Shown here piece after piece: positions 2,348-64,000 of a stretch of 64,000 nucleotides of DNA; position 1 is the first letter of the stretch; each line of letters begins with the position of its first letter. The stretch covers positions 35,402,001 to 35,466,000 of the forward strand of contig OX597814.1 in the NCBI GenBank assembly GCA_951406725.2, written 5' to 3'. The notes beneath the pieces are model-generated. The model saw nothing but the letters and a program-made list of their open reading frames with translations. It was not told where the DNA came from and searched no databases. The position numbers and the translations under genes are program-made. This DNA comes from Octopus vulgaris. Its lineage: Eukaryota.

Positions 2348-3034
2348 CACACACACACACACACAACACACATACACACATAATCTACACACACACAACA
2401 CACACACACACAACACACATACATACAGAACACACACACACAACGCACATACATATAATACACACACACAACACACAAATATAACATATATTTATATATA
2501 ATATACACACATATAACACACACACACAACACACATAACACATACACACGCAACACACGCACACATACATACATAATATAAATACAACACATATACACCT
2601 AACACATATATACATACAATACACATACACAGCATATATATAATACACATACACAATATATACATATAACATACATACACAATACATACATATAATATAT
2701 ATATATATAGACAATGCATATACATATATACATATATATATATATATAATGTTTACATACACATACATAAATATACCACATATACACACAATATACATAC
2801 ATACAATGTATACATATACACATACATATAACATACATATACATAACATACACATACACAATGCATACATATATATACATATAATGTATATACATGTATT
2901 CATGCATATACAACACACATACAATATACATACATACAATGCATATATACACATATATATACACATAATGTACACATACATATACAACACACATACATAT
3001 AATATACATATACACAATGCACATACATATAATG

Positions 3035-3070
<36 letters not shown>

Positions 3071-3375
3071 TCTATACATACATATATATATAATGCACAC
3101 ACACACACACACAAAATACATACATATAACGTACACACACATATATATATACATACCACACACACACACAAACAATGCATTCACATATACACACATACAA
3201 TGCATGCACACACACACACACACACAACACACACATATATACATATATATAACACATATACACACATAAATACATACACACACACAATGCACACACACAC
3301 ACACGCACACACACACACACACACACACAACCCACACAACACACACACACACACACATAACATACATATATATAA
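2270..3375. repeat. Compound degenerate (CA)n/(TA)n microsatellite region inside the PLE
   Basis: Directly visible dinucleotide repeats. Confidence 0.95.
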
Positions 3376-3526
3376 TGCATGCGCGTGTGTGCCGCGTATG
3401 TGTGTGGTCAATGCCTGCTGGTGTGCCCTATGTGTGCCGATGCGTGCATGTGTCCGCTTGCATGATACGTTGCGAGTGTGCGCGTGTCTTTGTGTGTTTG
3501 CTCTGGATGTGTGCCTAGGGGGTATG

Positions 3527-3737
3527 TTAGAGTATGTTTAGTTGTGGTCTGTATTTTTGAATAAGATTACTTTCCCTATTTATTCGTGTTTGGTCTGTGG
3601 TGTTGTCCGAGCATTGGTATAGTGGGAAGACTAAGAATTTGGGGGACTTATTGTGTGCACAAAGGTCTAAGTGTCCACTTAGTGGTATCTGTCTTGTGGA
3701 GGGGTCCCTCAGTTGTTGTCGGTGAACTGTCATTCTA
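3527..3737 (-). pseudogene. C-terminus of PLE GIY-YIG endonuclease
   Basis: RMTVHRQQLRDPSTRQIPLSGHLDLC...FLVFPLY...RINRESNLIQKYRPQLN fits the R..H...E..I....P.LN end of PLE endonucleases and parallels the remnant at 14613-14830. Confidence 0.75.
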
Positions 3738-3798
3738 GGCACACATATATACACATGCAGCACCATGTCAAATGCCATCCACACACATACATGCGTGC

Positions 3799-3836
<38 letters not shown>

Positions 3837-4344
3837 CACCATGACAACCACACACATGTTTGACAAACAGACACCATCTGACCAAATACTACAGACACAC
3901 AGACACATCTATTCACATGCACACACACATACATGCAGAGACACACATATTCACCTCATCCTAACCCCAAAATCATTGATGCTTGAAGGAAAGCCAAAAA
4001 AAGAAAAAAACGGGTATATCCTTTTCAATTCCACATCTCTGCTAAAACGGACAGGTCAGTAACAACCTCGCCACTACATTAATGTAAATCTTTTTGAATT
4101 CATAATATTCTGTACTGAACTTTTTTAATAATTCCTCCTGGAAATTACCCTGAGATGTATAATATATTTGTTTTAATCTTTTCTGCCCATTTTTTCAATG
4201 AGCTTGTTAAACCTCTTTATATTCTCAACATACTGTTGTACATTTTTATGTCCTTAACATGTCCCTGTTTCCAAAGACTATATATATATATGTAATGTAG
4301 CAATTTGCAACAACCAATACTTAACGCAACCAAACTTCCACATG

Positions 4345-4389
4345 TTACTTTTGATAATCTTTTTCCAAAGAGTGAAACTGGTAAAGTAA
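4345..4389 (+). ncRNA. Second copy of the U3-A8 hammerhead (slightly decayed)
   Basis: TTACTT-TTGATAA-TCTTTTTCCAAAGAGT-GAAA-CTGG-TA-AAGTAA. Confidence 0.65.
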
Positions 4390-4427
4390 ATAAACATCTT
4401 TTAAATTCCATTTTCAAACCTTCTTTC

Positions 4428-4553
<126 letters not shown>

Positions 4554-4964
4554 GCATGTGTGTGTGTCTGTGTTAGTCCCCCCAACATCGCTTGACAACT
4601 GATGCTGGTGTGTTTACATACCCGTAACTTAGCAGTTCAACTAAAGAGACTGATAGAATAAGTACTAGGCTTACAAAGAATAAGTCCTGGGGTCAATTTG
4701 TTTGACTAAATGCAGTGCTCCAGCATGTCCGCAGTCAAATGACTAAACAGGTAAAGAGTAAGAGTATGTTTGCTTAATGCTGTACATTGAATGTGATGAT
4801 GATAATCTTTATCAGAGCTGAATCTGTAAATGACTGTACACCCAAATCCTAAATGTGCAACATGATTGCCGGTAGGACATCAAAATGCTTAGTTAATGGG
4901 ACCACGTATGTATCATAATGTGTATACTACTTTTTGTCTTTATTGTTGCCTCTGCTTCTGATGC

Positions 4965-5190
4965 TGTTGTTGTTGTTGTTGTTAAGCAACAAGATGGGTG
5001 ATGGTGATTAGGTGATGGTCTAGGGCTTAGGGGTGGGAGACCCCAGACCTTGGAAAAAAAAACTTTGGTTGTCTTGTTGTAGTCGAGGGCTCTTCATTGA
5101 CGCCCGACACCACTGGGAGGTGGCCCTTGAAGTTGCTGGAAATGGAGATATCCAGGTCCAAATTCTTGAACAGCTGCTTCTGATGCTGTC
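4965..5190. repeat. Interspersed repeat of unknown family; inverted copy at 26455-26685
   Basis: Shares e.g. CCTTGGAAAAAAAAACTTTGGTTGTCTTGTTGTAGTCGAGGGCTCTTC with the reverse complement of ~26545-26595. Confidence 0.85.
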
Positions 5191-17410: not shown

Positions 17411-20400
17411 CAGTGGCGTGCGGTGACTTCCGGCGTTGGGCATGCAATTAATTTCATTGCCCCCCCCCCGGCAATTTTTCAGTAAAACATTTTCGTATTC
17501 CTACGATTTACATATAAGAGATTCTGAATATGCAGAATAAACAGGGAATAAAAAATGGCTGTGCAGAGATGATCCTGAAATAAGTGTATTGTTTGTATTA
17601 TTCTTTGCTCTTCGAAACGTCAGTACTTTCCCATCCTCATTCTCCCTTAGAAAAGTCTAAAAATCATAAGTGAAATGTAATAAAGATGAAATTGGATTCT
17701 GTCAATATTTTTGCATATTCAGAATCTCTGTTAAAGGTAGGAATCCGAAAAAAAATTTGCACATAAATTCGTTTTTCGAAGGGGTGCGATTCTGCATTAG
17801 CCCCTATACCTATCGGTTGAGCTGAATGAAATGATTTAATTAAAAGAACACATTTAGTTACATTATATGGCCATGGTTTTAGATCGTTACGCTCTCGAAG
17901 ACAAGTCAGGTTCTTTATCATGCTACTTGTCAATTCCGGGAAAATTATTGACTGTTCTGAGACTTACTGAACTCCATACATTAAAGGACTACGTCTCACG
18001 CACAAACATTGAAAATACACGCATATACATGAATACGCACACAATGAAAGACAGCGAAAATTCAACATTGTAAAAAGCCTCCCAAAACTGTTGTGGCAGA
18101 AGTCAACATCTCTGAGATTGAAACAAGACACTTATTGAAAGTGAAACAAAACACTTATTTACGGCCGTAAATAGACTACACCCAGCAGCACAGAAAGGGA
18201 AATCTATGTAGGTAGGTTTCACGAAGAAATCAAAACATTTCTCCTGCGAAACAATACTGATGTAAGAAGGTCGAACCTTACGTTATAACAAACACTAAGC
18301 AAAACCTGTAATATATGCTCTTTAATATATATTTTTTTTAATGTTTTAAAATGTTACTTAGCTCATTTATAAATTAATTCAATTCTTCGATCTTTCTGGG
18401 CAAATATATCTATCACATTTTCATAGAAATCTTCTCTTTTCATCAATTCTTGTAATAAATCTTTTTCAATTGACATTAGTGCTAACCCAGACAGTCTTCT
18501 TTCTCCTGTCGCATTTCTTTGGTATGTTTTAATTCTACTTAATGCAGAAAAGGATCGCTCTACAGAAGCAGTGGTAGACGGAATTGTCAAAATCAACTTG
18601 CACAGATTGAAGAGTTCTGGCATAGCTTCAACAAGATCAGTGCTGTTAATGTAACTCATTAAATGACTTACACTTGGTTTTTTAAAATCTTTCATTGAAT
18701 ACATCACATTGAGCTCACTTTGTAATCGTATTACATCAAAAAATCTGCCATAAGTTGTTCTTAAAGAATCTAAAGAGTCCACAGGAAATTGTTTGCAATA
18801 CTCATCAACTTTGTTGAAATTCAAAAGTTCCATGAATTTAAACTCTTCTAAGGATGAATATCGTGCTTTTATTTGGTCAACTATTGTACTTATAATTTTG
18901 TTATAAAGCGTTCTATAATGTCGTTGGGGATCAATAGATATATTCTTGGATCTCTGAATTCCGATTCCTGCATCGACTCCATATTTTTCCCCTAACCTAT
19001 CATAAAAGACTGAAAAATTATCAAGTTTGTTTTCGAGTACAGTTCTAGTTTTATCTATTTGCTGTTTACAATACACTATGTCATGACTTTTACTCTGGAG
19101 TATGTTAAATAAGACGTCAGTAAAAGAAAAAATGTCACTGAATACCTCTAACAAAAATAAGAAATCAGGAGCTTTTAAAGTGTGTAAGAATCCAATTGCT
19201 GAATTTATGGTGGTCTCATCCCATGCTTCAGGATTTTCAATGATGTGTTCAAAAAGGCTGATTATGAAATTATAATTTTCCTTTGTGGTAATAATAAGAC
19301 GTGAGGAGTAATTCCATCTAGTTGCTGTTGCTTTCGGAAATCTTTTTTTAACAATATTATCTAATGCATTAGTCCTTTTCGGTGATTTCGTAAAAAATGT
19401 ACCGAGTCCATTTATTGTAGAAAAAAATATCTTGCATTCTTTCATAGCAGAGCATGATTGTGAAAGAACTAAATTTAGGATATGGGCACAACAATGAATA
19501 AAGATCGCACATTCATATTTCTTTCTTACTTTTGCCTGTAACCCATTTAGTTGTCCTGCCATTGTAGCGGCACCATCATATGTCTGCGCAATCAATTTGT
19601 TTCCACATTCCCACGTCTCAATGCATTTAAAAACATGTTCAGATAAAGCATTTGCAGATCGATCTGCACTAACATCACTAAAACCGATAAATCATTCTTT
19701 TGTCACACAGTCTTCTGTAACATAACGTAAAACTGTTGACAGTTGTGAAGATGCTGAGACATCAGATGTCTCATCAACAAGAATAGAAACATACTTAGCT
19801 TGGTCAATTTCCTTCTGCATCTCATTCAACATAACTTTATGAATTGCTTCGATCAAGTCATTTTGAATTCTGTTCGACAGACCAGTGAAGATAGAAGCTG
19901 TATCTAAATGACTTTCCATTTGTTTGTCATACTTACTGATCAAATAAACGAGTTCTCTATAATTTCCCCGATTATTAGAGCCTTCAGATTCAAAATGACC
20001 CCGAAACGATAATTCCTGGAGGCCTAAAAAAATAACAACATCGATCAATCGTTGCAGAATGGATCTGTTTCGTCGAACTTTCTCATTATGCTGTTGTATG
20101 CTTTGATTTTTACGTGCATCTAATTGTAAGTCTATGCGAACATTCCCGAATATTTTAAGGTCTATCAAACATTTTATATGCCTTTGAGAACGCTCGTGCT
20201 TTAGCATAGCCATATGTAAATTATTTAAATCATCATAGCCTTTATCATTCCAAACATTTTTTTCTAAGCCAAAAAGTAAACACGGCCAACAGAATAATTT
20301 ATTAAGAGCAACACTTCCAGTTAACCATTTCTTCTTTTCATACGAATTAACCTGAAATTGTCTCGTGAATTTCTTGTTGTAGCTTCGCAAATTAGGTAAA

Positions 20401-21203
20401 TTCGGTGTTGGTCTCCCGCGATTTATAATTAATTTTTTCCCATCGAAGTCCCTTTTAGAAAAACTAGTTCTCAAAATATCGTTTATAGCACACATTTCAC
20501 TCATTTTAAAAAAGGCTGCTCTTATTTAAGGACCTACGTGGAAGCGCCGGCGTAAATTTTAAGTCAATTTCAACAAAACGGAAAAATACCCTTTGTTAAA
20601 TTAATTTAAGATTAATTAGCTCTTTCTGAAATAAGAAATATAATGTAGATATTTTTGCTTTCAAAACTTTCTAAAAATATGATAGTGCAAACGGATGTTT
20701 TGGATAAAAAATTTCAAACTTACATGCGAAGGCTAATCCAACATTTCAGCTGGCTAAAACAAGAATTATGGGACGGCTCTTGTTCCGGTCAAAATAGCCA
20801 GAGAGCGTGATATGCGATCTAAGCACAGCATGACAAGCCAAACTGAATTTGTCGAATCGCTGAGAGAGAAGGGGGTGACCATTCCTCGTAGTATATCTTT
20901 TAAACAAAGAAAGAGGGAGAAGGGACAAACTATCAAAGACAGAGAGAAGGGACTCATGCTGTCTTCCCAACGCATGACAAGCGATAAATTTATCGAGTCA
21001 CTAAGATAGAGAGAGAGAGAGAGGAAGGAAGGACAAACTAATACAGACAGAGAGGGAGTGTGTATCATGCGATCTTCTAAAAGTATTTATCAAAGCAGAT
21101 GTACGAAGTGGAGACAATATTTCTAAAACAACTGGACGTATTTTCTTTGAAACAAGGAAGGCATGCAGCGCATACCTTGCATTGCTGAGAGTGCACGCCC
21201 CTG
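17411..21203 (-). mobile_element. Full-length hAT DNA transposon (Tip100/ZMYM1-like), 3793 bp
   Basis: Imperfect TIRs CAGTGGCGTGC / CAGGGGCGTGC; exact 8-bp TSD GTGCATAT at 17403-17410 and 21204-21211; internal transposase. Confidence 0.95.
18363..20504 (-). pseudogene. hAT transposase (~713 codons) with one in-frame TGA at 19692-19694
   Basis: The two track ORFs are in the same frame, separated by 32 open codons. Motifs: LFCWPC...H...H zinc finger, FRGH, VDETSD, YDGAATMAG, HCCAHILNL, TRW, SVERSFSAL (hAT dimerization region). Confidence 0.92.
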
Positions 21204-22146
21204 GTGCATATGTACATAGGTATGCTTGTATGTATGTGTATGTACATATGTATGTACTCATGTATGTATGTGTATGAATGTATGCATATATCTAAGTGTG
21301 TGCGTGTGTGTATATGTGTGTATGCATGCATGTATGTGTGAGTGAATGTATGTTTTTATGTATGTGTATGAATATCTGTTTGTATGTATGTGTGTATATA
21401 CATACACAAGGACCAGTAATGGCACAGGCTGAATAGTGAACATTATCTTAACATAATTTAAGAGCCTAGTTTATGACAGATAACTTATTTCAAGGATTCT
21501 AAGAAAACAAAAACCTTTCCTTCACAAGATGCCGTTACATCTTCCATTCATAGCAACATGAGGAACGCATGTAGTTTTCTCCAGAATATATCATTAGCTG
21601 TCAATCGGAGTATCTTTGTTGCTTCAACATTACCATATTTCAATATCTGTGTGCATTGGTATGTTTTGGGAGTAGGGAGGAACTTGTCTACAACAGATAC
21701 TGTCTTCTACTATCCAAATCTAGAACTCTGCAAGCCAAAGCATCAATTTTGTTGTGTTTTAAATGGGGCATAGAGAAATATGATGTGTTATCATGCAAGT
21801 TATGCACAGAATATATAAAAAATATGACTGAGAATCAATCATATTAAACAGTAAGACAAGCAAAATTCATCTTTACTCTTATATTCTCCTGCACTAATAT
21901 AACTTCCTCATGTTCTTTGATCTTTCACTCATTCTATAAGTTGCATAAATTTAAAATTTCATGCACACACACACACACACACACACACAGAGGCACTCAT
22001 ACATATATACATACATACACACATATCACACACATAAATATACATACATATGTGTGTATATATGTTTTTATATGTGTGTATGTCTATATTGATATATATA
22101 TGTTTGTGCATATATATGTGTCTGTGTGTATATATAAATATTCATA

Positions 22147-22186
<40 letters not shown>

Positions 22187-22189
<3 letters not shown>

Positions 22190-22715
22190 TCATCATCATC
22201 ATCATCATCATTTAGCGTCCGCTTTCCATGCTAGCATGGGTTGGACGGTTCAACTGGGGTCTGTGAAGCCAGAAGGCTGCATCAGGCCCAGTCTGATCTG
22301 GCAGTGTTTCTACGGCTGGATGCCCTTCCTAATGCCAACCACTCTGTGAGTGTAGTGGGTAGACCATAACCCGTAGCCTCTACCTGGTATGTAGCCAGTC
22401 GACTTATACATACCTTTCCTTCTTGGGACACAGAACTCCACTTGTGAAGACCCGTTGAGGCAAGTGAAAATCAAAATCAAAATCAAAATCAAACCAAATC
22501 AAATCAGATATCAGAAAACAGAACTAAAATCAAAGTCGATCAACATCAATGGAAATTGCAGCTGTGATACCAGTGCCGGTGACAAGTAAGCGAACCATCC
22601 GATCGTGGCCGTTGCCAGCGCTGTCCTGACTGGCCTCCGTGCCGGTGGCATGTAAAAAGCACCATCCATTCGTGGCCGTTGCCAGCCTCGCCTGGCCCCC
22701 ATGCCAGTGGCACGT
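22187..22715 (-). mobile_element. RTE-LINE 3' UTR/tail fragment
   Basis: (CAT)n-TTTAGCGTCCGCTTTCCATGCTAGCATGGG... matches the reverse complement of 47750-47905. Confidence 0.7.
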
Positions 22716-22770
22716 ATATATATATATATCTATATATATGTCATGAAGATGTTGGTTATAGCTGATCAGA

Positions 22771-22831
22771 AAGTTACCACTGGTTTCATGTCTATTATTG
22801 CTCTTAGTAACAAAGGTGACTCATCAAACCC
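22771..22831 (-). ncRNA. Degenerate hammerhead-like motif downstream of a PLE endonuclease
   Basis: GGGT-TTGATGA-GTC...GAC-AT-GAAA-CCAGTGG-TA-ACTT; C3 is changed to T and there are two extra nt before GAAA. Confidence 0.5.
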
Positions 22832-23044
22832 ACTGGCCAGAGGTACATAATCTCTTTACTAATATAAGTAAGAATACAGTCTTGGTCAGCAAAGTCGTAA
22901 ACAAAATAAACCTAAAACAAAATTCTTCGAAGCAAAAGCCTCCTCTGTGCAAGATGAAGTTATGTCCCTTTCAAAGGTTCCAGCTGTGTCCAAAAAGGGT
23001 TAGTTTATGCACAATTATCATTCAGTTGTCAGTAGATAAATCCA

Positions 23045-24660
23045 TGTCTTCAACATGAATCTTCTCTCATAATGGCACCAACTAAAAATTTCTCTTTTGG
23101 AATTTAAGATGCTTCCCGGATCAAGCAAATCTTTTAATATCCTTGCCCTCTCAGCCAAGCAAAGTTTACATCGTCTGCTCCCACTGAGGTATACTCTTTT
23201 ACTCTTTTACTTGTTTCAGTCATTTGACAGCGGCCATGCTGGAGCACTGCCTTTAGTTGAGCAAATCGACCCCGGGACTTATTCTTTGTAAGCCCAGTAC
23301 TTATTCTATCGGTCTCTTTTGCCGAACCGCTAAGTGACGGGGACGTAAACACACCAGCATCGGTTGTCAAGCAATGCTAGGGGGACAAACACGGACTCAC
23401 ACATATATATATATATATATACATATATACGACATGCTTCTTTCAGTTTCTGTCTACCAAATCCACTCACAAGGCATTGGTCGGCCCGGGGCCATAGCAG
23501 AAGACACTTGCCCAAGGTGCCACGCAGTGGGACTGAACCCGGAACCATGTGGTTGGTTAGCAAGCTACTTACCACACAGCCACTCCTGCCAGATTTTTTT
23601 AGGAGCTTCCACTTAATCATGTATAACATTCTCTCCTCATTTAGATACAATATGCAGATGGCCAAGGAGTAGGTTCCTCTCTGGAATCCTAAAAGACAAC
23701 TTGTTATTTAGTTGTAGCTCCAACATATTTCCATGTATGTAACTCTACGTTACTGGTGTTGTTGCTGCTGCTGCTACTATTGCTGCCGTTTATGCTGGTA
23801 TTGTCGGATACATTGATGGTGCTGCTGCTGTTACTGATGGACACCACCTCCATCTCATAGACCACAGCCTTGGAGTTAATCACATCGTCTGCTTATGAGG
23901 GATTTCTTCCTGAGCCAACATGAACATCCCACCTCTATGTGGGGTTTAGGGGTATTCACTAAAATCTTTTTTTATACTGGGTGCACAGTTAAATGAGACC
24001 TTTAAGTGTATTTATTAAATAATTTTCTGTACCCACGGAATTGCATAAAATGCTTATCCACTGATCTAAGGAATACCCTTTCCATGCATGTTTTGAAGTT
24101 GATGGAGAAGGATGATGAAACTAAATGACCATATGGTGGCACTTTCTTTTGGGGGTATTAGGTCTCAGCATTAGGTCCTCAAACCTGCAGGCTGCCAAAG
24201 CCTCTTTGTACAAGAGGGCCCTAGGTTCGTAAATTTCTTTATTCAAGGATAGGCTCAACATCCTCTAACTGACTACCTTTGCAAAGTTCTTAAACACAAC
24301 AGATGAGTAGCAGGAAGCTGTGTTAATAGACGACAACCTTTCATTTGGTTTGTAGTAGGGTTTGTAAGACTGGTCTGAATTCTAATCTTAAGACCAAATG
24401 AGCTGTGTGAATTAGATCCTCCGAAAGACTGTCTAGGGTGTGCCTATTTATGTCTCCAAAGGGGGCTGACATGTCATCTCTCTATAAACCAAAAGGACTG
24501 ATGGGGCCCTCTTTGTTAAGGTTTCCAGTATATATAATCCTATGAAGTCATATATCTGCATTGTTGAATGCCCTCATCACCACTTTGTAGGAGCCTGTTT
24601 GGTCAGATTGTTTGCCCCCATAAGATTATGAAGTGGTTGTCTCTTTTTTGCATGTATATT
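23045..24660 (-). pseudogene. Decayed PLE (Naiad-like) RT plus endonuclease, interrupted by a SINE
   Basis: FGLYRDD, YKPYYKPN, FLRSVDKHF...KLFNKYT, KYVGATT, IKWKLLK [SINE] YLSGSRRCKLCLAE...LNSKREIFSWC. Confidence 0.78.
23192..23590 (-). mobile_element. tRNA-derived SINE (family A), full length
   Basis: Near-identical to the reverse complement of 30782-31176. Confidence 0.9.
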
Positions 24661-24849
24661 CCCTCAGAACAACATATTTGATGAGCTGAATAAAAAAAAT
24701 ACAGCACTAACAAAAGAAGAAATGGGATTGAAGGGGTTGAGGTATCAAGAATGAAATGAAAGGGAACAGTGATTGAGATAAGGCTGGTAGAAAGGGTGAG
24801 AAAATGATGGATAGTAAGAGGTAGCTAAATGTTAAGAATAACTAATGGA

Positions 24850-25125
24850 TCATCATCATCACCATCATTGTTTAATGTCGGTTTTCCTTGCTAGCATAGG
24901 TTGAACGGTTTGACTAGGGTCTGGAGAGCCAGTGGCTGCACCAGGCTCCAATCTGATCTGGCAATATTTCTACAGCTGGATGCCCTTCCTAATGCCAACC
25001 ACGCCAAAAATGTAGTGGGTGCTTTATACTTGAAACTGGCACAGAAACCAGTCAGTTGGGCCTTGCATCGATCATGTTTGGATGGTGCTTTTTATATGCC
25101 ACCGGCATGGGAGCCAGTCAAGGGG
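24850..25125 (-). mobile_element. RTE-LINE 3' tail fragment
   Basis: Same motif set as 22187-22360. Confidence 0.65.
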
Positions 25126-25659
25126 TAACAAATGGTTGGAAGGAATAATGATGAGATGTTGGTGCAGTATGTGAAGTACATGCAAAGCTGATAAAATGTT
25201 TATACCTATGGCTGGAGATGGGCAAGAGAGATTTGGTGATAAAAATGAGAAAGAGAAGAGCTGAGTTTTGATGAGAGAGTCAAATCGGTTTAATGACATC
25301 TCTAGTTATACCGGAGACATGGTACAGTGATCCTCTACCATTCTTAGTTACCCTGATCACATAGAAAACTGAAAGAGACAAGAAGATAAGTGATTCAGAA
25401 ATAAGAAGTAAGAAAATGAGATATAGAAGCATAAGAGATAAAGCTATTAAAGGCATGGATACCAGTGGCATAGGATAAAGAAAGAAATGGGATGTGTGGT
25501 AGGAGAGATTTATAAAAGAGAGGCTGTGCTGGATTAACCATTAAGCAAAATAAGCATTGCTTAGGGCATCAAGGAAAGGGACGATTACAGAAATGGTTTA
25601 CAGTACAAAGGAACATTATTTACAATTGACGGATATTTGTCCTCATCTTGTTTGTTGTT

Positions 25660-25705
25660 AACACAACATTTCAGCTGATATACCCTTCAGCCTTCATCAG
25701 GTGCC
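25660..25705 (-). ncRNA. Minimal type-I hammerhead ribozyme
   Basis: GGCAC-CTGATGA-A-GGCTG(AAGGGTATAT)CAGCT-GAAA-TG-TT-GTGTT. Sister copies suggest an ancestral palindromic GAAACGTT. Confidence 0.72.
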
Positions 25706-25788
25706 TTGGGGAAATTTTGAACCTGGGTTCTCATTCCTAAGGTATATTTCGATATTATTATTATCATCATCATCATTAATATTATTCA

Positions 25789-25862
25789 GGTCACTGCCTG
25801 GAATCAAACTCGGAATCTTGGTGTTAGTAGCCTGTGCTTTTAACCACTACACCATATGCTGT
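25789..25862 (-). promoter_or_regulatory. tRNA-like Pol III internal promoter (A and B boxes)
   Basis: TGGTGTAGTGGTT...GAGTTTGATTCC with tRNA-like spacing; not a complete cloverleaf. Confidence 0.65.
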
Positions 25863-25889
25863 GGGTCATTATGGAGTGAATTTTAGGGC

Positions 25890-26365
25890 TTATAAATCTA
25901 ATATTCTCCTATCCTTCCTTAATACCGGTTCCCATATGCTGTTCATATCTGCACTTGGTCTGCCTAAGAGGTCGTTGTGTCCTAACATATGTGCTGCTTC
26001 TTTTAGCTTTTGTATTTTCCAGTGGTGTTCTCTGTATATTATTTTAACTTCATCCCACAGGGAGAGGTGGTCTCCGTTTTTCCATACACGATCAGCTATA
26101 CCCGATTTATCAATATCTCACTGATGTTCCTCTATCTTTATTTTGAGGGGGCAGCATGTTTCGACTTTGTATAACCTACCACAGCTGCATGGGATGGAGT
26201 ACATGTAGTTCTTAGTCATATTCTCTTCTATTAGTGGTTTTACTTGAAGGAGGTATTTGCGAAGTATTGTATTAATTTTGAATACTGTCCTGATGTCATA
26301 TGGGATGCATATCTTTTGTAACTTTTCAGAGAGGCCTTTCACATAAGGTAGACAGACTGTGGACA
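25890..26365 (-). pseudogene. PLE GIY-YIG endonuclease remnant
   Basis: KGLSEKLQKIC...MYSIPCSCGRLYKVET..PLKIKIEEH...SGIADRVW...WDEVKII..EHHWK..KLKEA. Confidence 0.85.
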
Positions 26366-26454
26366 GTTTATTGGTTTCATCCCCTCTTTTCTTCCTAATT
26401 GGAGTGGAGAGTATGCTTTTGGGGTATTTCTAAATGTGAGTAGCTATGCAGCAC

Positions 26455-26685
26455 TGCTACAGCAACAGCCATCCAAGAATTTGGACCTGGAGATCACCAT
26501 TTCCAGCGACTTCGAGGGCCACTTCCCAGCAGTGTCAGGCATCACCGAAGAGCCCTCGACTACAACAAGACAACCAAAGTTTTTTTTTTCCAAGGTCTGA
26601 GGTCTCCCACCCCTGAGCCCTAGACCGTCACCTAATCACCCTTACCTGTCGTGTTGCTTAACAACAACAACAACTACAGCAACAA
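26455..26685. repeat. Interspersed repeat, inverted copy of 4965-5190
   Basis: Direct sequence comparison. Confidence 0.85.
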
Positions 26686-29523
26686 ACCTTTTTAACTTTG
26701 CCCTCTTCTCTCATACTATAACCCTTTAGCAGTTAAACCAGTCATATCTAGACAAAATATTCTACTTGTTTTATGTTCAAACTGGCCTGATCTGGTCTCT
26801 CACACCTACCCTAGAATGTCATTCTAAAAGTATACAAGCACATCATTGAAATCTCAAAGCTACAAGATAATGCATAATTAATTCAAAACAGATGTGAGTC
26901 AATAAGCATTGCATTTGATAGAGTAAACTGAATGCTAAAGGGTTAATCCTTTATTTTGTAGAATAAAGCCACCTCTCTCAGAGTACCTCAGGCAACCTCA
27001 CTAGTACTGGTGGCACACATAAAAGCACCCCATACACACTGTAAAGTGGTTGCCAATAGGAAATGGATCTAGCCTTAGAAATCTAGCTAAAATAGACAGA
27101 GGAGCATGATGCAGTCTTTTGACCTGTCAGATCTTGTCAAACCAGTATGGAACATGGAAGTTAAATGATGATGATGATAACGATGGCAATGATGACAATG
27201 ACGATAGGGGGGGAGGGTGATGATGATGATATATATTTGTGTGTATGTATGTGTGTGTCAGCTAAGCTATGGAGAAAGCAAATGTGGATAAATTGTAAAT
27301 AAGTTTACGTGCATACATTTAATAAACACACATTGTAGCTGTCAATTTTTGCAAGTTGAGTGAGCATATAAAAGCTTTCTCAAAATAACTTTTGAGGTGT
27401 CTAACTGAAGTGGAAATTTTGCTTCAACAAAGAATCAAACCCAGGTTCCAAAATTCATTCACCCTGTGCTTGATGATCTGGTGTTGATCATCATAGCTGT
27501 CAGTTAATAAAAATTAATTAACAAATATGAAAATAAATGGGAGCAAATTAAAATACACACATACATACATACATACATACATGCATATATACATACATAC
27601 ACACATGTGTGTGTATGTATATGTATCAATTTATGATTCATGTGAACAATTTGAACATGCGTAATTTGTTGTTTTAAAAATGTTTGTCATAGAGTTGAAG
27701 AGGCGAAAAAATGAATTAAACATTTTTAGTCAATTATATTTTAATTTCAAGTTTTTACATAAAACATGTTCCATAAATACTCTACAATTCTCATTCATCA
27801 GTTTCCATATAACACATATACATATATATATACACATACAAATGCACGCACATGCATACACACACACAGACACACATGTATGCAGACAGACAGACACATC
27901 ACACACATTCACATGTGTATGTTTTATACATGTATGTGTGTGCACATACATGTATGCATGAATACATAGATACACATACATACATACATAAGAATATATA
28001 CGAATATGTAGATACATATATATACTTAAATACATACATACATACAAACAAACAAACAAATACATAGTTATATGTGTGTGTGTGTGTGTGCATGCATGTG
28101 CATCTGTGTATATATACATATGCAGATACATATAAATGTATGTATGTATATTCATATATATATATACATTTGCACAAGGTGGAGGTACGAATTGAAAAAA
28201 CTTAAGTTAAAAACAAAATCAAGAAACAAAAATAGGTATGAGTATTAAAATTAGAATTTTTCAAGTTTTAGTTCATTTGATATTTGAATAAAATGATTAA
28301 TCATTTTTAATTAATCGAACACAAGTTTAAACATAAATAAATAAATAAATAAATAAATGTGAAAAAAACTTTAATGTAAATAACTAAATGAATAAAGCAA
28401 TTAAAAATAGCCTCTACTCATTCATTTTTTAGTTTTTCTTGACACCAGCGACTAATTAACCACTTTTCATATTTGGTGTAATTTATAAACTATTTAATTA
28501 TGCCACAATCATCATGTTCACTACTTCCAATATTGTCGTATCCAGCCATCATCAGCGTTTTCATCATTGTCCATGACCATCACCATCGTTTATGTCTATC
28601 TCACAACATTTTTTTTCACCTCACCCTCTTCCACCTTAGCTTGACTTGGGTTGGACAAGAATATCAATATCAATGGTTGTAAAACAAATCTCAAAGAAAA
28701 AGAGAAACCAAAAACTGTTTGTAAATATTAAGAGTTAAAAGAGATGTGCCAATATTATACAGAAACATTCCAAGTGTCAGGCTCAACCCCTTTATGTTAT
28801 AGTCAGCATGACTTTGATGTATAATTACAAATTTTTTATCTACTAAAAGGGAAAAAAGAAAAAAGAGATACATATGTTTATGTATAGGTATGTTTCAGTG
28901 TTTCTGTATGTGTTTGTGTTAGCTAGTGTACATATGTATGTGCATGGAACTGAAAAACTATTTTTTAAAAAATATATAATAATATAGTGTAAATTTATAA
29001 TAAATGCTTAAATTAATTAAATATATTACTATAAACTTCAATCTATTTAGAAAACCAATCATGTTTGTAAAGTTAGGTGGAATTAATAATGCAGATATCT
29101 AAGACAAACATAAATTTATGATTATTGGAGAATTGGAAAAAAAAATCTTTCAAATGAAAATTTCTTTTTTACTTGGGTAGAAACTAAATTTAGTGAGAGA
29201 GAGGGAAAGTGGAGTTAGTTGATTAAATCAATTTCCATTTTATTACAGGTATTTACATTATAGACTTTAGAATAATGAAACTTTCAAAGCAATTCAGAAA
29301 TATATTTTTGAGGTAGTGAACTGAATCTGTTGCCTGGTATAATACCACTGTCAGGTCTTTCAATGTATTTAGCAAAGTCAAATTTGTTGTAAGCATTAGG
29401 GCAAGTTCTATGATCTGGGGAGAACTTCCTCCTTCTCTCCTATCAGTTTTGGAGGGTCTGGAAAAGACCATCAGTAATAGCCATCCCTTTTTCACTAAAA
29501 CAATAGGCATACAAATATGTGTG

Positions 29524-41899: not shown

Positions 41900-43400
41900 C
41901 CTTCAAATTTGATGAAGATGGCCAAAAGGACTATAGTATACAGATGTGTGTCACTAAAAACGAGGAAAATTTTCAAAGTGCTATACATCCAAGTAGAAAA
42001 ATGCTTGATGGACATTTGGACTCACACAAGGAAGACAATATGGTTCTGTGGGAGTGAGGTTACTAATGGAAGAACTGGTCCAGAAACACTCAATGGTCCA
42101 GTGCAAACACATGAATCTTCTCCTTCCCACATATCCTGGATGACAGGTGGTGAAAGTTAAAATATCAGATGTACCACCAGAATTAGACATTTGGTGGTTG
42201 GTTGCATGCGCTGTGGTGGAAGACCTCGATTTGCTTCTAGAAATTAAAAAATATTGGAAAGAGAACTGGTCCGGAATTGGGTTGGAATTTTTGATCCAGG
42301 TAAAACTGGAATCCCTGAATAAGGTCCCTGACCTTATAGAGCTGCCCAACGGAGCTCAATTCCAGGTTGTAGTGGAAAACAGAAAGCCAAAGTGCCACAC
42401 TTGTGGGTATAACCCACATTAGAAGGTCCTCTGCCCATAACAACAACAAAATGGAGCTCAAAGAATGGCGGTTCTGCTACCACCACCAGGTTGATAAGAA
42501 CTGGGATGAGATAGCGAATGGAGTGGTCAGTCTTACCCAGAAATAGGCTGAGAGGAAGCTGTCCCTGAAAATGGTTACATCACCTCCGTTATCATTTATT
42601 ATCTGACTGTTATGCCGTGTTCTGGTTACTGCTTGACCAGGTTGGAGCATCTCTTATTTAAATTCTTGAGGAAGGGATGTGTTTCAATGGTTAGTCTGTT
42701 ACCAGCATCCTCTGAATGGCAGATTAGGTATGCTGTGGCTCTTATGTGCAGACATGCACTTAGGTTATGCTACCTGCAACGATTTCTGCACAGTGAGCGT
42801 TTGTGCGCTCCGTTTGCAAGGCTCATCTTTCCTCAGCTTGTCTCCTTGACGGAACTGCAATCCTTGGTGAAGAAAAGATCAAGACTGGGTGCCTGGCACC
42901 TAGAATGTCATCAGGCATTCATAGCCCTCTACCAGTTGGGTAATGGGATTGGCGGATGTTCTGCTTTAAAAATTTATAGACGATTGGTCACGGGGAAGTC
43001 TGATGACATTCTCAAGGATACTCTGAGTGTGGATGAGAATAAACTGGCTAGTCTGTTCTGGAGGACTTTCCAGTAAGGAACTATTATAGATATTTTCCAG
43101 ATGTCCTTGGTCTGACAGTGCTATAGAGGGGTGCTACAAGTTCAAGAAAAACCCTATAGGTATGGATGTGCTCTCAGATGGTCTTGTCCGAGGTGTGTGC
43201 AGAGTGACAAAACCATTCTGCATGCCCTCTTTGAGTGTCCGGGTATTGCTGACATGTGGGGTTATATCGAATAGCTGCTATCATGTGTGGGATGACCGAG
43301 TCTCTAGTGACGATCGCCCAGCTGCCCTCCTTCAATTGGGCAGCCAAAGCAGTTTTCTTTTGCCTGCTGGCTGTGACTAAAGAAGATGTTTAGTGGACAA
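41900..43400 (+). pseudogene. Internally deleted Tx1/L1-clade LINE relic (ORF1 zinc knuckle plus ORF2 C-terminus)
   Basis: RKPKCHTCGYNPH*KVLC fits CX2CX4HX4C; downstream CPRCVQSDKTILHALFECPGIADMW fits the L1/Tx1 C-terminal CCHC. Confidence 0.75.
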
Positions 43401-45109: not shown

Positions 45110-45470
45110 CGTCAGCTGGGCCTGCGTAAGGTGTGCCCAGAATTTATGAAACTGTTCTGCATATCCTAGTTCAGTGCCCAAGTATTGCTGACCCATGGGC
45201 TCATACATTATTTACATTTGACGGGTATTTATCCGCATTTTGTTTGTTGTTAACACAGCATTTTGGCTGATATACCCTCCAGCCTTCATCAGGTGTCTTG
45301 GGGAAATTTCAAACCTGGTTCTCATTCCTAAGGTATTTTTTGATATTATTATTATTATTATTGAGGGTGGAGAGGGAAGTGTTGTCTTCTAGCAAGTTTG
45401 TTGAAAGGTGGGTGAATGTTGGAAGAATGGCCAGTGTGAAAGGACCAATTTTGAGCGTACACCTGTAAAA
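45110..45470 (+). pseudogene. Tx1-like ORF2 C-terminal fragment interrupted by an HHR-bearing PLE tail
   Basis: CVRC...ETVLHILVQCPSIADPW, then LRVEREVLSSSKFVERWVNV. Confidence 0.6.
45206..45360 (-). mobile_element. PLE 3' tail with decayed minimal HHR (45252-45297)
   Basis: Copy of 25613-25770: GACAC-CTGATGA-AGGCTG..CAGCC-AAAA-TGCT-GTGTT. Confidence 0.8.
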
Positions 45471-46494
45471 GAAGGGAATTAAAGGAGAAGGGCTCTTGCC
45501 ATGTTGATCAAGCCCCCATGGTTTTTGTGAGTTTTTCCACGAGGATGTTAAAGTTTTAATTTATTTAATTTTTTATTGCTATGCTTTGTTTACATGCAGA
45601 AAACCTATTGTATCGTCCTGTTTTTGTCTTTTATTATTAAGACAGAATTGTTAGCATGCTCAGCCAAAACGCTTAGTGACATTTTATCCATCTTTATGTT
45701 CTGAGTTCAGATTCCACTGAGGTTGACTTTGCCTTTTGTCCTATCTGGGTCGATGAAATAAGTAACAGTTGAACATTAGGAGCCATTGTAATTGACTTAT
45801 CTCCTTCCCCAAAATTGCTGTCACCTTTCTCTTTGCCCTTTCCTGGATAATTCTCTGGAGTAAGGAAATAGATAAGAAGTGATTGGTAACCTCACTTACC
45901 CTTCCTCAAATACAAATGTGTGTGTATGTCACTATTGTATAATGCAATGCAGCTGATTCTAAGCAAGAGAGAGAGAGAGAGAGAGAGAAGAATCAAGCCC
46001 TAGACTTCATATATCGACCCTTCAAGGATGAATAACAAAATTGACATTCAGGGGATTTGAACTTATATTGTAAGAAGCCCTGAGAAATACAAGGCATTTT
46101 TCCAATTCTCTAACAATTCTGTTAATCGACCATTCTAGTCACTCAATTATTATACAATGCCAATAATAAGTGAGTTAAGGCCTTGTATCTATGTGAGAAA
46201 TCAATATGTCAGTTGAAAGAGTGACTTATTTATGACAGACTAGAGATATATCAAAGAATAATATTGGTTTCTTTCAGTTAGATAAAAGGTCAATGATTTG
46301 AGTATATTTGAGTGAATAAATCTGAATACTATTATTATTATTATTATTATTATTAATGTCTCCCCACCATTTATAGTATACAGGCATCCCAATATGTTTG
46401 CAAAGCTAGTATTGTATTTTATGGGTCCCCTGTGGTAAACAAAAAAACAATTCTTCTTATTTATATATATATAAATAAAGCAATTATATATATA

Positions 46495-47905
46495 TATAAA
46501 GCAATTAAGGGTCTAAACACAGGGAAAGGCCCCGGTCTATCAGGAGTCACAACAGAGATGCTTAAAATATCTGGCGGTGTAGGCTATAGTCTTGTCACCT
46601 GTATAGTCAATCAGGTGATACATGAAGGAGTCATACTCAATGACTGGTATAGCAGTATCATAGTCAACTGCTACAAAGGTAAAAGTGAAGCATTAGATAG
46701 GAATAATTACAGAGGTATCAAATTGTGGGACCAGGTGATGAAAGCCATGGACAGGGCCATAGCCCAACTAATTAGGGAGAGAGTTAGTTTATACAAGATG
46801 CAGCTAGGGTTTGTACCACGGAGAAGCACCACTGATGTTATATTTCTAGTAAGACAGTTGCAGAAGAAATTCCTAGCCAAAGATAAACCTCTGTACTTGT
46901 CTTTCATTGACATGGAGAAAGCCTTCAACTATCTGGTGGTCAATGCAGAAACTAGGGGTAAATAAGTGGTTGGTGAGAGCTGTACAAGCCATGTACAGAG
47001 ATGCTGTTGGTAAAGTGAGGGTTGGCAACGAGTATAGTGAAGGATTCCAGGTAGAAGTTGGAGTGCACCAAGGATCAGTCCTCAGCCCTGTGTTTTTCAT
47101 CATAGTCCTCCTGGCAATAACAGAGGAATTCAAGACAAGCTGCCCCTGGGAGCTCCTCTATGCTGATGACCTTGCTCTAATAACTGAGTCACTACCAGAA
47201 CTAGAGGTACTTAGAGCAAATCTAGCAGAAACTAAAGTCTTAGTAGGAAGGCAGACAAATCATAAACCCCTCCAGATAGATGTCTCTCTCGATCTGCAGA
47301 AAAGGTGTAGGTAGAAACTCCATAAGATGTATCTGTTGTGAGCTGTGGACATAGAAGAGGTGCAGCAATATCAAAGGAAGGTTAACTGGGAAGCTAGTTT
47401 TTGTGTGTGGAAGATGCACAGGTACAATAAACACCAAAGATGTACAGAAAATAGATTCCATCACATGCTAGGGGGAAAACCAGAAGTATTTGATAGCTTC
47501 TGTTACCTAGGTGACTAAGTCAGTAGCAGGGTCTCACAGAAGCAATGACAAGTGACCAAGACCTTTGGAAATATGCTGTGCTTGAGAAGACCTGTGGAGT
47601 CAAGTGAAATTTTGATCGTGGCTGATGCCAGTGTTGCCTGACTGACACCTGTGCTGGTGGCACATAAAAAGAACCTTTCAAGCGTGGTCATTGCCAGTGT
47701 TGCCTGACTGGCTCCCATGCCAGTGATATATAAAAAGCACCAACTACATTCTCAGAATGGTTGTTATTAGGAAGGGCATCCAGCTGTAGAAACATTGCCA
47801 GAATAGTTTGGAGCCTGGTGCAGCCTCCTGACTTGCCAGTCCTCAGTCAAACCGTTCAACCCATGCCAGCATGGAAAGCAGACGTTAAACGATGGTGATG
47901 ATGAT
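46495..47905 (+). pseudogene. RTE-clade LINE fragment: reverse transcriptase plus 3' tail
   Basis: GKGPGLSG...NYRGIKL...QLGFVPRRSTTDVIF...FIDMEKAF...GVHQGSVLSP...LLYADDL; frameshifted; ends in (GAT)n. Confidence 0.92.
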
Positions 47906-48161: not shown

Positions 48162-49422
48162 CAGGTGTTGGACAAAATAATGGAAACATCTAGCATCATA
48201 ATTTTGAAATATCTATAAAACCATTAAACGCTTGTTTATTTTTATGTTTTTTTTATTTATTATTAGTGTTGCTTAAAACGTTTTGCTAAAATTGCTGTTT
48301 CTTTTCAGATATCATCAGAAAAAGGTAATTAAAATTCATTAAAATGACAGATCTAGCGGACTTTCAAAGAGGTCAAATTGTTGGTGCTCGTATGGCAGGT
48401 ACTAGTGTAATGAAAACAGCTGAAATGTTTGGTGTATCAAGAAGCATTGTCCCGAAAGTAATGACAACCTTTGAGAAAGAGGGAAAAACTTCCTCATTGA
48501 AACAAAACTCTGGAAGAAAACCAAAACTTTCAGATAGGGACCATTGGACTCTTATGCGAATTGTTAGAAAGGATCACAAAACTACAGCTCCCAAAATTAC
48601 TGCAAACCTTAATGACCATCTCAGTTATCCAGTTTCTGCAAAAACTGTTTGCTGGGAGCTGCAGAAAGCTGGATCTCACGGGAGGGCTGCAATCAGAAAA
48701 CCACTACTTTCAAAAACATACGCTGCAAAGTGTTTAGAGTTGAGTAAAAAAGTACAGAATTAGTCCCTAGAGCAGTGGAAGAATGTTATTTTCTTGGACG
48801 AATCATCTATTACCCTATTTCTGTCCACCATCTGAGTATATGTGTGGAGACAGCCAAAAGAATCATTTGACCCTGACTGCTTTCTTCCAACTGTTAAACA
48901 TGTCAGAGGATCTGTGATGATCTGGGGGGGCTATATCTTGGAAATCCACCAGCCCAATGACTTCCCTTCATGGCAAAATTAATAGTCATGACTATTTAAG
49001 CATTTTATCTGATCAAATTCATCCTATGGTCGTGGAACTGTTTCTGGAGGGAAAGACAATCTTTCAGGATGATAATGCACCAATTCACACAGCTACAGTT
49101 GTTACTGAATGGCACAAGGAACATTCTAGTGAAGTTGAACATCTTATTGGCCACCACAGTCCCCAGATCTCAATATTATTGAACATTTATGGTACGTTTT
49201 AGAAAAACAATTAAGGAGTCAATATCCTCCCATCATCACTACAAGAACTGGAGACTGTTTTAGCTGAAGAAGGACAAAAATTCTTTTGGAAACAATTCAA
49301 ACTTTGTATGAGTTCAAACCTTATAGAATTCAAGCTGTAATTACTGCCAAAGGCAGTCCTACCTCATGTTAAAATAAATTTGTTTGAAATATTAAGGTGT
49401 TTCCATTATTTTGTCCAATCCG
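48162..49422 (+). mobile_element. Tc1/mariner transposon, full length, with decayed transposase (48344-~49372)
   Basis: TIR core TTGGACAAAATAATGGAAACA at both ends and TA flanks; HTH region with GRKPKLS, then FLDES, FQDDNAPIH, SPDLNIIEH. Confidence 0.93.
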
Positions 49423-49437
49423 TATATATATATATAT

Positions 49438-50207
49438 ACAATTCATAAATAAGGGTAAACAAAAAAATATCTAATGCCAAATATGCCGAAAAATTGGACA
49501 TATTGTCCATTAACCATATAATTCTTTCACATATTTTTGGCATATTTGGCATTAGAAATTTTTTCGTTTGCCCTTATTTATGAATTGTTTATAATTTTAA
49601 CCTTTAGAGGTATTTTTTAATATGCTGGCCATTGATAAAACTTTTTTTTTTTGGAAAAAAATTTTTTTTTAGAAAAAAAAAAAAAAATTTTATCCTACAT
49701 TAGATATAAATTTAAGCGTTCACTTCCGGACTCTTTCACTCTGAGAGCATCAGTTCAAATCGCACATGTCTCGAATGGGCTAGAGTATTTCTACTTTGGA
49801 TGTATTTGGGGTACTTAATTGTGCTCATGACTTAGTGTTTGCTTCTTCCATGGGTATGAGTAAGTATCTCATTTATTTCTTTAGCCACATGTATCACTGA
49901 CGAAGGAAGGCTGTTATAAGCTAACCCTGAAATTAGTCCGATATGGTAATAATGGAATTTTTTAGAAATTTCTGTCCATCTTTTTTCGAGTAGCGTGCGT
50001 ATTGTGAAAGAACTATATGGTTAATGGACAATATGTCCAATTTTTCGGCATATTTGGCATTAGAAATTTTTTCGTTTGCCCTTATTTATGAATTGTTTAT
50101 AATTTTAACCTTTAAAGGTATTTTTTAATATGCTGGCCACTGATAAAATTTTTTTTTGGAAAAGAATTTTTTTTCAAAAAAAAAAAAGAAATTTTATCCT
50201 ACATTAG

Positions 50208-50210
<3 letters not shown>
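49438..50210 (+). mobile_element. Non-coding PLE-type element: inverted piece plus partial tandem pseudo-LTRs
   Basis: 49438-49531 is the reverse complement of ~50003-50097; 49533-49708 is a direct repeat of ~50040-50210; flanked by (TA)n. Confidence 0.85.
49892..49948 (+). ncRNA. Type-I hammerhead ribozyme with intact core
   Basis: TATCA-CTGACGA-AGG.GGCT..AGCT.CCT-GAAA-TT(AGTCC)GA-TA-TGGTA; stems I, II and III can all pair. Confidence 0.78.
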
Positions 50211-50240
<30 letters not shown>

Positions 50241-63180: not shown

Positions 63181-63862
63181 CACATATGGAAAGGTAGAAA
63201 ATGCTAAAATAATTTTATAAAAAACATTTCAGTTATTGAGACTTTTTCAACTGTAAGTATGGAAAACAATTAAATTTTGGAAAAATTAAAAGAAAAGTTT
63301 TTTAAAAGAATGTTTGCATAGTATTCATTTGCAAGGGGTATTTTCCTTGTTTCTGCCTCTCTCTCTCTCTCTTGTTTACTCATGTGGTTTCGAGGTCTAT
63401 ATATATAATATAAAAATAAAAAAAGGTAACACAGCTGGTGTTTAACATTTATGACAGCTGTTTTTATAGAATATACATACACAATGGGTTTCTTTCAATT
63501 CCATGTAGCAAATCGACTTACATCGCTTTGGTTCACCCTAGGGCTATAGTAGATCACACTTGCCCAAGATTCCAAGTAGTAGGACTGAGGATGAAACCAG
63601 GTGTTTAGGAAACAAACCTCTCATCCACATAGCCATGCTTGTAATTTAATAATATATAATTCTTGTAGAACATAGTGATATTAGACATTATAAGTACCAG
63701 TTCAAAACAGTAAATAGAACTCCCCACTTCTGAAACATAAACAAGATATCTCGCATTTACTGGATGACCAAATTAAATATGATAATTTGTTTTTTTCTGT
63801 TTAAACACAATTAGATCTTACAGTTCTATATTTAAGAGATGAGGAATTATGTGCATTATTTA

Positions 63863-64000
63863 CATTATTTACATTCAACGGATATTTGTCCACATCTTGT
63901 TTGTTAACACGTTTCAGCAGATATACCCTCCAGCCTTTTTCAGGTGTTTTGGGGAAATTTCGAACCTGGGTTCTCATTCCTAAGGTATTTTTTGATGTTG
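63863..64000 (-). mobile_element. PLE 3' tail with decayed minimal HHR (63906-63948), cut by the window edge
   Basis: Third copy of 25613-25770. Confidence 0.8.

Follow-up and report, generated by a model that had tools for sequence, protein, structure and literature searches.

A tRNA-like head in the 3' end of a Penelope-like element family, with a likely SINE-like offshoot

A tRNA-like head is a fixed family trait of the 3' end of a Penelope-like element, represented on the minus strand of the 64-kb window (the whole stretch of DNA that was analysed) by a copy that ends at position 25613, and a subset of the family's copies starts sharply at this head and runs into unrelated DNA upstream. 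This tRNA-headed Penelope 3' end is real, is family-wide and occurs in three organisms; it appears novel by literature search, and likely has a SINE-like offshoot. The 25613 locus itself is dead repeat DNA, and the interest lies in the family to which it belongs.

The 25613 copy and its relatives in the window

Read on the minus strand from about 26430 to 25613, the sequence passes from a coding fragment through about 30 nt to the tRNA-like head, and from there through a linker, a spacer and a hammerhead to a tail. The coding fragment (25890-26430) was identified by protein matches and alignment as the 5'-truncated, decayed C-terminal part (linker and endonuclease) of a Penelope-like ORF, and it is followed by a short 3' UTR from the stop codon to the leader of the head (25871-25889), which is spanned by RNA reads and contigs. 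The leader (25862-25870) was placed by the loose-end consensus at 25859, 25861 and 25868 together with a simulation, and the head (25789-25861) contains an A box at 25854-25844, a 7-nt anticodon-like loop at 25830-25824 and a B box at 25809-25801. Downstream lie an (AAT/GAT)n linker (25754-25786), inside which a second window copy starts; a conserved 48-nt spacer between linker and hammerhead (25706-25753), common to 3/3 window copies and deeply covered in 4/4 sequencing runs; a minimal type I hammerhead (25660-25705); and a 47-nt tail (25613-25659) reaching a common 3' end, where 514, 456 and 643 contigs of the three DNA runs have loose ends with mixed flanks. The original prediction had placed these parts correctly on the minus strand and had omitted the spacer at 25753-25706.

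The endonuclease-like frame closes with TAA at 25892-25890 and is broken by an internal stop at 26120-26118, situated at a deletion of about seven codons in the alignment to its relatives. Its first 99 codons match 94 of the 155 candidate proteins at E<=0.001 with 52-67% identity, and its second half is 62% identical to protein P0001; since the best relatives are only 67% identical, the host's own copies are seemingly absent from the protein collection. Longer relatives, of up to 768 aa, carry an RVT_1 domain upstream of the matching C-terminus, so that an ORF with reverse transcriptase (RT) followed by a C-terminal endonuclease is seen in the relatives only, the window copy being without RT. 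No GIY-YIG profile of Pfam or PHROGs matched the coding part; a CIY..CxC..YKG motif with histidines is visible by eye in the protein alignment. EN+ Penelope-like elements carry a GIY-YIG motif with a CCHH signature. By eye, no zinc-finger-like motif was seen in the RT-endonuclease linker of two proteins, P0107 and P0001; such a motif is described as a feature of Neptune and Nematis in excerpts of PMC8557442, and the combination of an RT, a C-terminal CIY..CxC..YKG domain and no evident zinc-finger linker appears to fit the Penelope/Poseidon clade as defined there. The earlier reading of the locus as the 3' end of a Penelope-like element, with a GIY-YIG stop at 25890, is upheld by the RVT_1-bearing relatives, the C-terminal endonuclease-like match and the minimal hammerhead downstream; the stop is also borne out, and the GIY-YIG label is tentative, reflecting a motif seen by eye. 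Four predicted proteins of a sister family (P0006, P0051, P0057 and P0082) have at their N-terminus what reads as a comparable hammerhead-plus-tail translated in antisense (46-58% identity), and these starts are read as inverted 5' copies typical of Penelope elements; the upstream part of these proteins contains no (AAT)n-type run.

The hammerhead core, CTGATGA at 25700-25694 and GAAA at 25672-25669 on the minus strand, is complete in the 25613 copy, the only one of the three window copies that retains it in full. Stem I has 5 bp (25705-25701 with 25664-25660), stem II (25692-25673) has 5-6 bp, with one bulged A, and stem III is replaced by a two-base linker, which is TG in the 25613 copy and CG in the copy at 63862 and in L001, a distant relative from a metagenome; the predicted cut falls between 25665 and 25664. 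In the family majority the G-U pair of stem I is converted to A-U (25704: 2880/3011 RNA reads). Rfam made no hammerhead call here at E up to 10, and the minimum-energy fold of the 25613 copy did not produce a hammerhead; the assignment was made by hand against PMC4209133, with whose minimal Penelope type, as excerpted, the motif fits in sequence, and minimal hammerheads are said there to cleave weakly. The exact hammerhead pattern gave 0 matches in the viral, metagenome and prokaryote collections. A second hammerhead-like motif of different sequence, at 49897 on the plus strand near the repeated segments 49433-50218, is possibly the end of another Penelope family.

The second copy (45205-45361, minus strand; 89% over 158 nt) consists of a linker remnant, spacer, hammerhead (G12>A) and tail, without a head, and the third (63862-64000, minus strand; 85% over 144 nt, 63862-63999), which is cut by the window end, consists of spacer, hammerhead (G8>A and a 6-nt deletion) and tail. 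This agrees with the recurrence of hammerhead plus tail that had been predicted at 45206 and 63863, and with the truncation of the former in (AAT)n, where the 45205 copy indeed starts; the claim that the 63863 copy has the same 3' end does not hold, as beyond that point this copy carries on through a 9-nt repeat into a 34-nt 3' extension (63819-63861, minus strand; extension proper 63819-63852). At 25613, 2146 RNA reads have loose ends whose consensus of 30 letters (agreement 0.61) is identical to positions 63823-63852, and the extension is likely the optional 30-40-nt Penelope 'tail'. All three window copies are solitary, with no head-to-tail tandem, and no flanking repeat longer than 5 nt was found around the two complete ones, neither of which is a head-start copy. 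The ATG within the hammerhead core opens a short frame at 25697-25620 and, beginning MKAGGYIS, at 45289-45210 (both minus strand); the frame stops after about 24 codons, at GTAAAT, which might, speculatively, act as a splice donor. The anole Poseidon ORF likewise begins within its hammerhead (PMC11167929, in excerpt).

Around the 25613 copy, a repeat pair at 26460-26684 (plus strand) and 4959-5182 (minus strand), 88% alike over 225 nt and ending in (CAA)n, stands back to back with the 5' truncation point and looks like a LINE 3' end. The unique flanks (25561-25590 and 26431-26460) are covered at single-contig depth in the runs from organisms B and C, which suggests that the 25613 locus predates the split of B and C, contiguity of the element being presumed. 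Elsewhere in the window, two adjacent open frames of 442 and 277 aa with one stop between them (18363-20525, minus strand) look like a hAT-type transposase, and fragments recognised by eye resemble an RTE-type LINE RT (46357-47314, plus strand), a further LINE (42552-43076, plus strand), a Tc1 transposase (48329-48763, plus strand) and a Helitron protein (62330-62797, minus strand).

A tRNA-like head carried by the family

The A-box-like and B-box-like segments each lie one mismatch off the box consensus, and are spaced 45 nt from start to start, the spacing being 44-45 nt in SINE-like heads elsewhere in the window. In 30 first-order Markov simulations, using the same box consensus, the chance of such a pair in a given 110-nt slot was about 0.002; chance as the source of the boxes is ruled out by this simulation together with the family majority letters. 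In the family majority the B box reads GTTCGATTC, backed at 25806 by 942/1092 RNA reads and by 78-87% of contig depth; for the A box, the loose-end consensus gives TGGCGTAGTGG. The tRNA stems of the head pair poorly, and neither ARAGORN nor Rfam (up to E 10) made a tRNA call on this copy, so what supports the tRNA and hammerhead labels is the motifs, their spacing and the letters that prevail in the family; on the 25613 copy alone both labels are weak. The head may bear a likeness to tRNA-Arg, and a search of phage records for the parent tRNA returned chance matches only. Its leader, judging from the loose-end rows, would in the family majority repeat the first bases of the head in inverted form, and is decayed in the 25613 copy. 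A/B-box pairs with 44-45 nt spacing also head other repeated SINE-like families in the window, at 23582, 30070, 30792, 32116 and 39182, and (GAT)n runs end other SINE-like window repeats around 24850-24880.

Pol III would be expected to start 17-19 nt upstream of an A box. Its internal promoters are described in excerpts of PMC11346459 as having 30-60 bp between the boxes and a T4 terminator. From head to tail the 25613 copy contains no T4 run, the first being at 25550. Avoidance of T4 across the whole element, as if Pol III read the ORF, was considered and rejected: the 0 T4 runs in 818 nt correspond to P = 0.52 in dinucleotide and P = 0.16 in mononucleotide shuffles, and their absence over this length is therefore dismissed as evidence.

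The distribution of the head within the family was followed in four of 24 runs, from three organisms, mapped on 25561-26460 at 80% likeness: DNA contigs of X1 (organism A), X7 (organism C) and X4 (organism B), and RNA reads of X24 (organism C). About 20,000-28,000 contigs per DNA run and 10,304 RNA reads were aligned, the latter from the 6% of the RNA run that was read. The six strongest loose-end positions per run were considered, with 2011 loose ends and 125 joints lying beyond them, and the microsatellite positions 25746-25789 were left out (38 joints and 75 loose ends in X4). The contigs are short, and neither their counts nor DNA depth are taken as copy numbers.

Contigs entering from the endonuclease side carry the 5' part of the head as a loose end in 65 cases in X1 (agreement 0.69) and 48 in X7 (agreement 0.81), with no such endonuclease-to-head row for X4 among the rows listed. 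In the RNA of X24 the junction is spanned by 482 reads at 25867, with about 155 starts, and depth stays within one order over the head (816-1116), the junction (666) and the 3' part of the endonuclease (744-853). A one-off SINE insertion, which the original prediction had named as its refuting case, is ruled out by the recurrence of the endonuclease-head junction in many copies of organisms A and C, the 65 and 48 contigs noted above. Over hammerhead and tail, depth is 2400-5000, from which it follows that head-less copies of the 45205 type are likely the commonest form.

At least four joints link the tail or spacer to the head or endonuclease on single contigs from internally deleted copies at other loci: 25660-25840 and 25703-25912 in both X1 and X4, and 25729-25810 and 25733-25974 in X1. 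Among the rows listed, continuity between head and hammerhead across the linker is observed only in the 25613 copy and in these four internally deleted forms, and for no head-start contig. No full-length or tandem copy occurred in the window or among the pieces listed. Long contigs that end at 25870-25875 were not accepted as head-less subfamilies, since the decay at 25858-25869 in the 25613 copy clips alignments there. At 25714, 299 RNA reads of X24 (agreement 0.91) share the hammerhead side and diverge in the spacer, and may come from a related subfamily or from a single highly expressed locus.

Copies that start at the head and their possible origin

In each of the three DNA runs a row at 25859 ranks among the six strongest for loose ends, with 83 contigs in X1, 70 in X7 and 105 in X4 and median loose lengths of 69, 42 and 52, respectively. 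The loose ends hold about 12 family letters upstream, followed by AT-rich noise with an agreement of 0.46-0.47, which is comparable to the scatter of the mixed 3'-end flanks at 25613 (0.48-0.50), and their contigs amount to about 11% of the listed 3'-end contigs at 25613-25616 (718 in X1, 612 in X7 and 960 in X4). Because 25858-25869 is decayed in the 25613 copy, truncations scattered over a broader stretch might be merged in this row, and truncation was therefore simulated. When truncation was spread over 25-45 nt, 3-4 of 4 diagnostic G letters were kept in at least 96% of 400 runs; those observed were 2, 0 and 0, which is what a sharp boundary would give if no more than about one fifth of the contigs ran on. 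Since the simulation, which is uncalibrated, overestimates agreement in every model (0.51-0.70 as against 0.46-0.47), the letter test alone was used. It places the boundary 17-19 nt before the A box, at about 25870-25872. The suggestion that a subset of copies might start at the head is confirmed by 83, 70 and 105 contigs with this boundary and mixed flanks. When linker-spanning copies were sought with the antisense open frame that crosses the element, one candidate and no significant match was obtained, and no pile of RNA ends was seen in X24, a single cDNA run with near-equal first mates on both strands and thus a poorly suited library.

Much of what can be proposed for these copies is drawn from anole Poseidon, for which excerpts of PMC11167929 describe a protein that nicks AT-rich DNA, with RT starting internally on the RNA; the two start sites lie downstream of the hammerhead and bound the 30-40-nt tail. 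The same source describes a required RNA that extends beyond these start sites and, in vitro, hammerhead mutants that still insert, uncleaved RNA being the main template (PMC11167929). We give an even chance to the reading that the 25613 element, decayed and truncated at its 5' end, belongs to a high-copy Penelope-like family with a fixed head, whose head-start subset comes from a Pol III transcript that was retrocopied uncleaved. The wider proposal, that these copies form a SINE-like family with a tRNA head which owes its mobility to a Penelope-like element and not to a LINE, and was born inside its master, in at least three related animal genomes, is put forward more tentatively, at somewhat less than even.

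In such a course of events, a sequence of tRNA origin that ended in (AAT)n would have entered the 3' UTR of the master about 20 nt past its stop codon; amplification of the composite is shown by endonuclease-bearing copies that continue into the head. In tandem masters the head would be located in the upstream pseudo-LTR, where Pol III would initiate 17-19 nt before the A box and transcribe linker, hammerhead and tail, in the 25613 copy through a stretch without T4. The protein would then bind the RNA downstream of the hammerhead and nick AT-rich DNA, and RT would start within the RNA at either of two sites separated by 35-45 nt, which would give copies with or without the extension. Copying to the RNA 5' end would yield head-start copies, stalling at (AAU)n would yield the commoner hammerhead-plus-tail copies, and long Pol II RNA would yield truncated endonuclease-bearing copies such as that at 25613, the coding RNA still needing Pol II. 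As the needed RNA extends past the RT start sites, head-start copies would mostly be without the binding region and would represent single-round products.

Hammerhead cleavage would be dispensable if the template is uncleaved. If the element behaves as Poseidon does, an RNA cut at 25665 could not serve as template, since copies end at least 50 nt further downstream, and an RNA ending at the ribozyme site appears an unlikely template on this analysis. Of the two alternatives offered by the original prediction, a Pol III promoter captured by a Penelope pseudo-LTR and the source of a SINE-like RNA, both are supported, by the fixed head and the head-start subset, and they are compatible with each other; processing by a ribozyme, which formed part of the second, does not receive support, given where the copies end, the lack of a pile of RNA ends in the poorly suited X24 library, and the uncleaved template of the one Poseidon element studied in vitro (PMC11167929, as excerpted).

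The sharp boundary at the head would be produced equally by the natural 5' end of an independent mini-SINE of tRNA and (AAT)n without a hammerhead, moved by a LINE, one copy of which landed in the 3' UTR of the master Penelope element and has been carried since. We consider this origin unlikely. It would accord with the (GAT)n ends of other SINE-like repeats in the window, with linker rows at 25746-25789 that stand outside those listed, and with the like origin proposed in excerpts of PMC10886601 for tRNA-bearing TRIMs; however, RNA depth over the head is 1.0-1.4 times that over the 3' part of the endonuclease, so that a large free-standing family is not apparent, no second match to the head was found within the 64-kb window, and single contigs connect tail or spacer to head at other loci. 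A shade less probable is a head that is a passenger without promoter role, the pile of 5' ends being due to an RT stop at the leader/head hairpin or to an RNase P-like cut. The junction in its family form would be an inverted repeat whose hairpin could itself stop RT, and truncation also occurs at the (AAT)n linker; against this, both boxes are at consensus in the family majority despite poorly pairing tRNA stems, and the boundary coincides with the expected Pol III start site, 17-19 nt upstream of the A box, and lies upstream of the position at which RNase P would cut.

In three organisms head-start copies account for about 11% of the 3' ends listed, which would also be compatible with a self-propagating SINE (tRNA head and Penelope tail) that came first. 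The endonuclease-linked form would then have arisen later through a template switch onto the Penelope RNA near the stop codon, and the junction's inverted repeat might be a scar of fold-back. This order of events is improbable in our view, as the RNA depth continues from head into endonuclease and as the Poseidon binding region lies beyond the RT start sites, which would leave daughters mostly without it (PMC11167929, in excerpt). Least credible, and very improbable, is a cycle like that of Sm-alpha or retrozymes, with tandem Pol III units, dimeric hammerhead cutting, circularisation and reinsertion. Sm-alpha does have a hammerhead downstream of a Pol III promoter (PMC6765202), and retrozymes have been proposed to come from pseudo-LTRs (bioRxiv 2026.07.22.740005), both as excerpted; but the three window copies are solitary, no 3'-end loose-end consensus among the rows listed is equal to the head, copies neither begin nor finish at the predicted cut, and minimal hammerheads cleave weakly (PMC4209133).

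Relation to known systems

In current descriptions, SINEs travel with non-LTR LINEs, and it is in LTR-type TRIMs that terminal repeats are known to contain Pol III promoters. If the reading preferred here is true, Penelope elements would become carriers of SINE-like RNAs, and the family would represent a SINE caught at birth, with its master still attached, as well as a natural test of trans-mobilisation by a Penelope protein and of the relevance of hammerhead cleavage. Ohshima and Okada reportedly described the octopus tRNA-derived SINEs OK, OR1 and OR2 in 1994. The repeats of the window look like those of an octopod genome, and if the host is an octopod, the tRNA-headed short form of about 260 nt may already be among its catalogued SINEs. 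OR2 is listed as a CORE SINE (PMC4758252). Two cephalopod repeat surveys enter SINEs and Penelope elements separately in their main text, and their supplements may hold a consensus (PMC13282606, PMC8967140). In a literature search of mostly open papers, standing apart from the sequences of Repbase, Dfam and SINEBase, no description was found of a Penelope element with a tRNA head in its terminal repeat, or of a tRNA SINE moved by a Penelope element.

With EN+ Penelope-like elements such as the Poseidon element PAc (excerpts of PMC11167929, PMC8557442 and PMC4209133), the family shares an RT-endonuclease, seen in its relatives, and a minimal type I hammerhead in the 3' repeat, as well as heavy 5' truncation, an optional extension of 30-40 nt, AT-rich flanks and an ATG in the hammerhead core. 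It differs from Penelope and Poseidon as described in these sources in having a tRNA-like head and a microsatellite between stop codon and hammerhead, and in its head-start subset. A protein-led metagenome scan returned 9 loci from 31 candidate stretches, all of them distant (30-55%) and suited to loose contrast only, with hammerhead-like motifs in 5/9, an A/B pair only inside coding matches in 2/9, and a tRNA by ARAGORN in 0/9. The distant relative L001, a metagenome contig with a Penelope-like ORF of 631 aa at 367-2460, passes from its stop through 125 nt to a hammerhead without an A/B pair, unlike the 25613 family.

A promoter derived from a small RNA and placed inside a terminal repeat is likewise found in TRIMp3 elements (Cassandra, Helenus and Ajax), where a tRNA or 5S promoter is thought to derive from SINE insertion (PMC10886601, in excerpt). 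TRIMp3 elements are, however, non-autonomous LTR elements with PBS, PPT and target duplications, for which no long repeat is expected in common with an autonomous partner (PMC10886601), whereas the head described here sits in the 3' end of the coding element itself. Animal non-LTR retrozymes, short hammerhead repeats proposed to be non-autonomous Penelope derivatives, are defined by tandem arrays and circular RNA, unlike the solitary window copies (PMC7229834; bioRxiv 2026.07.22.740005, both in excerpt), and the words tRNA, Pol III and promoter are absent from the main text of the preprint as consulted. A parallel in the order of parts is offered by Schistosoma Sm-alpha and Sj-alpha, where a tRNA-related Pol III promoter is followed by a type I hammerhead (excerpts of PMC6765202, PMC2770079 and PMC8490949), and the arrangement in the 25613 family, if true, would suggest a possible route to such elements. 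As described in the same excerpts, Sm-alpha is often tandem, has an active hammerhead that frees monomers, and has no stated link to an endonuclease ORF, whereas the present family has solitary copies, a hammerhead of the minimal kind found in Penelope elements, and a head that is linked to a Penelope ORF.
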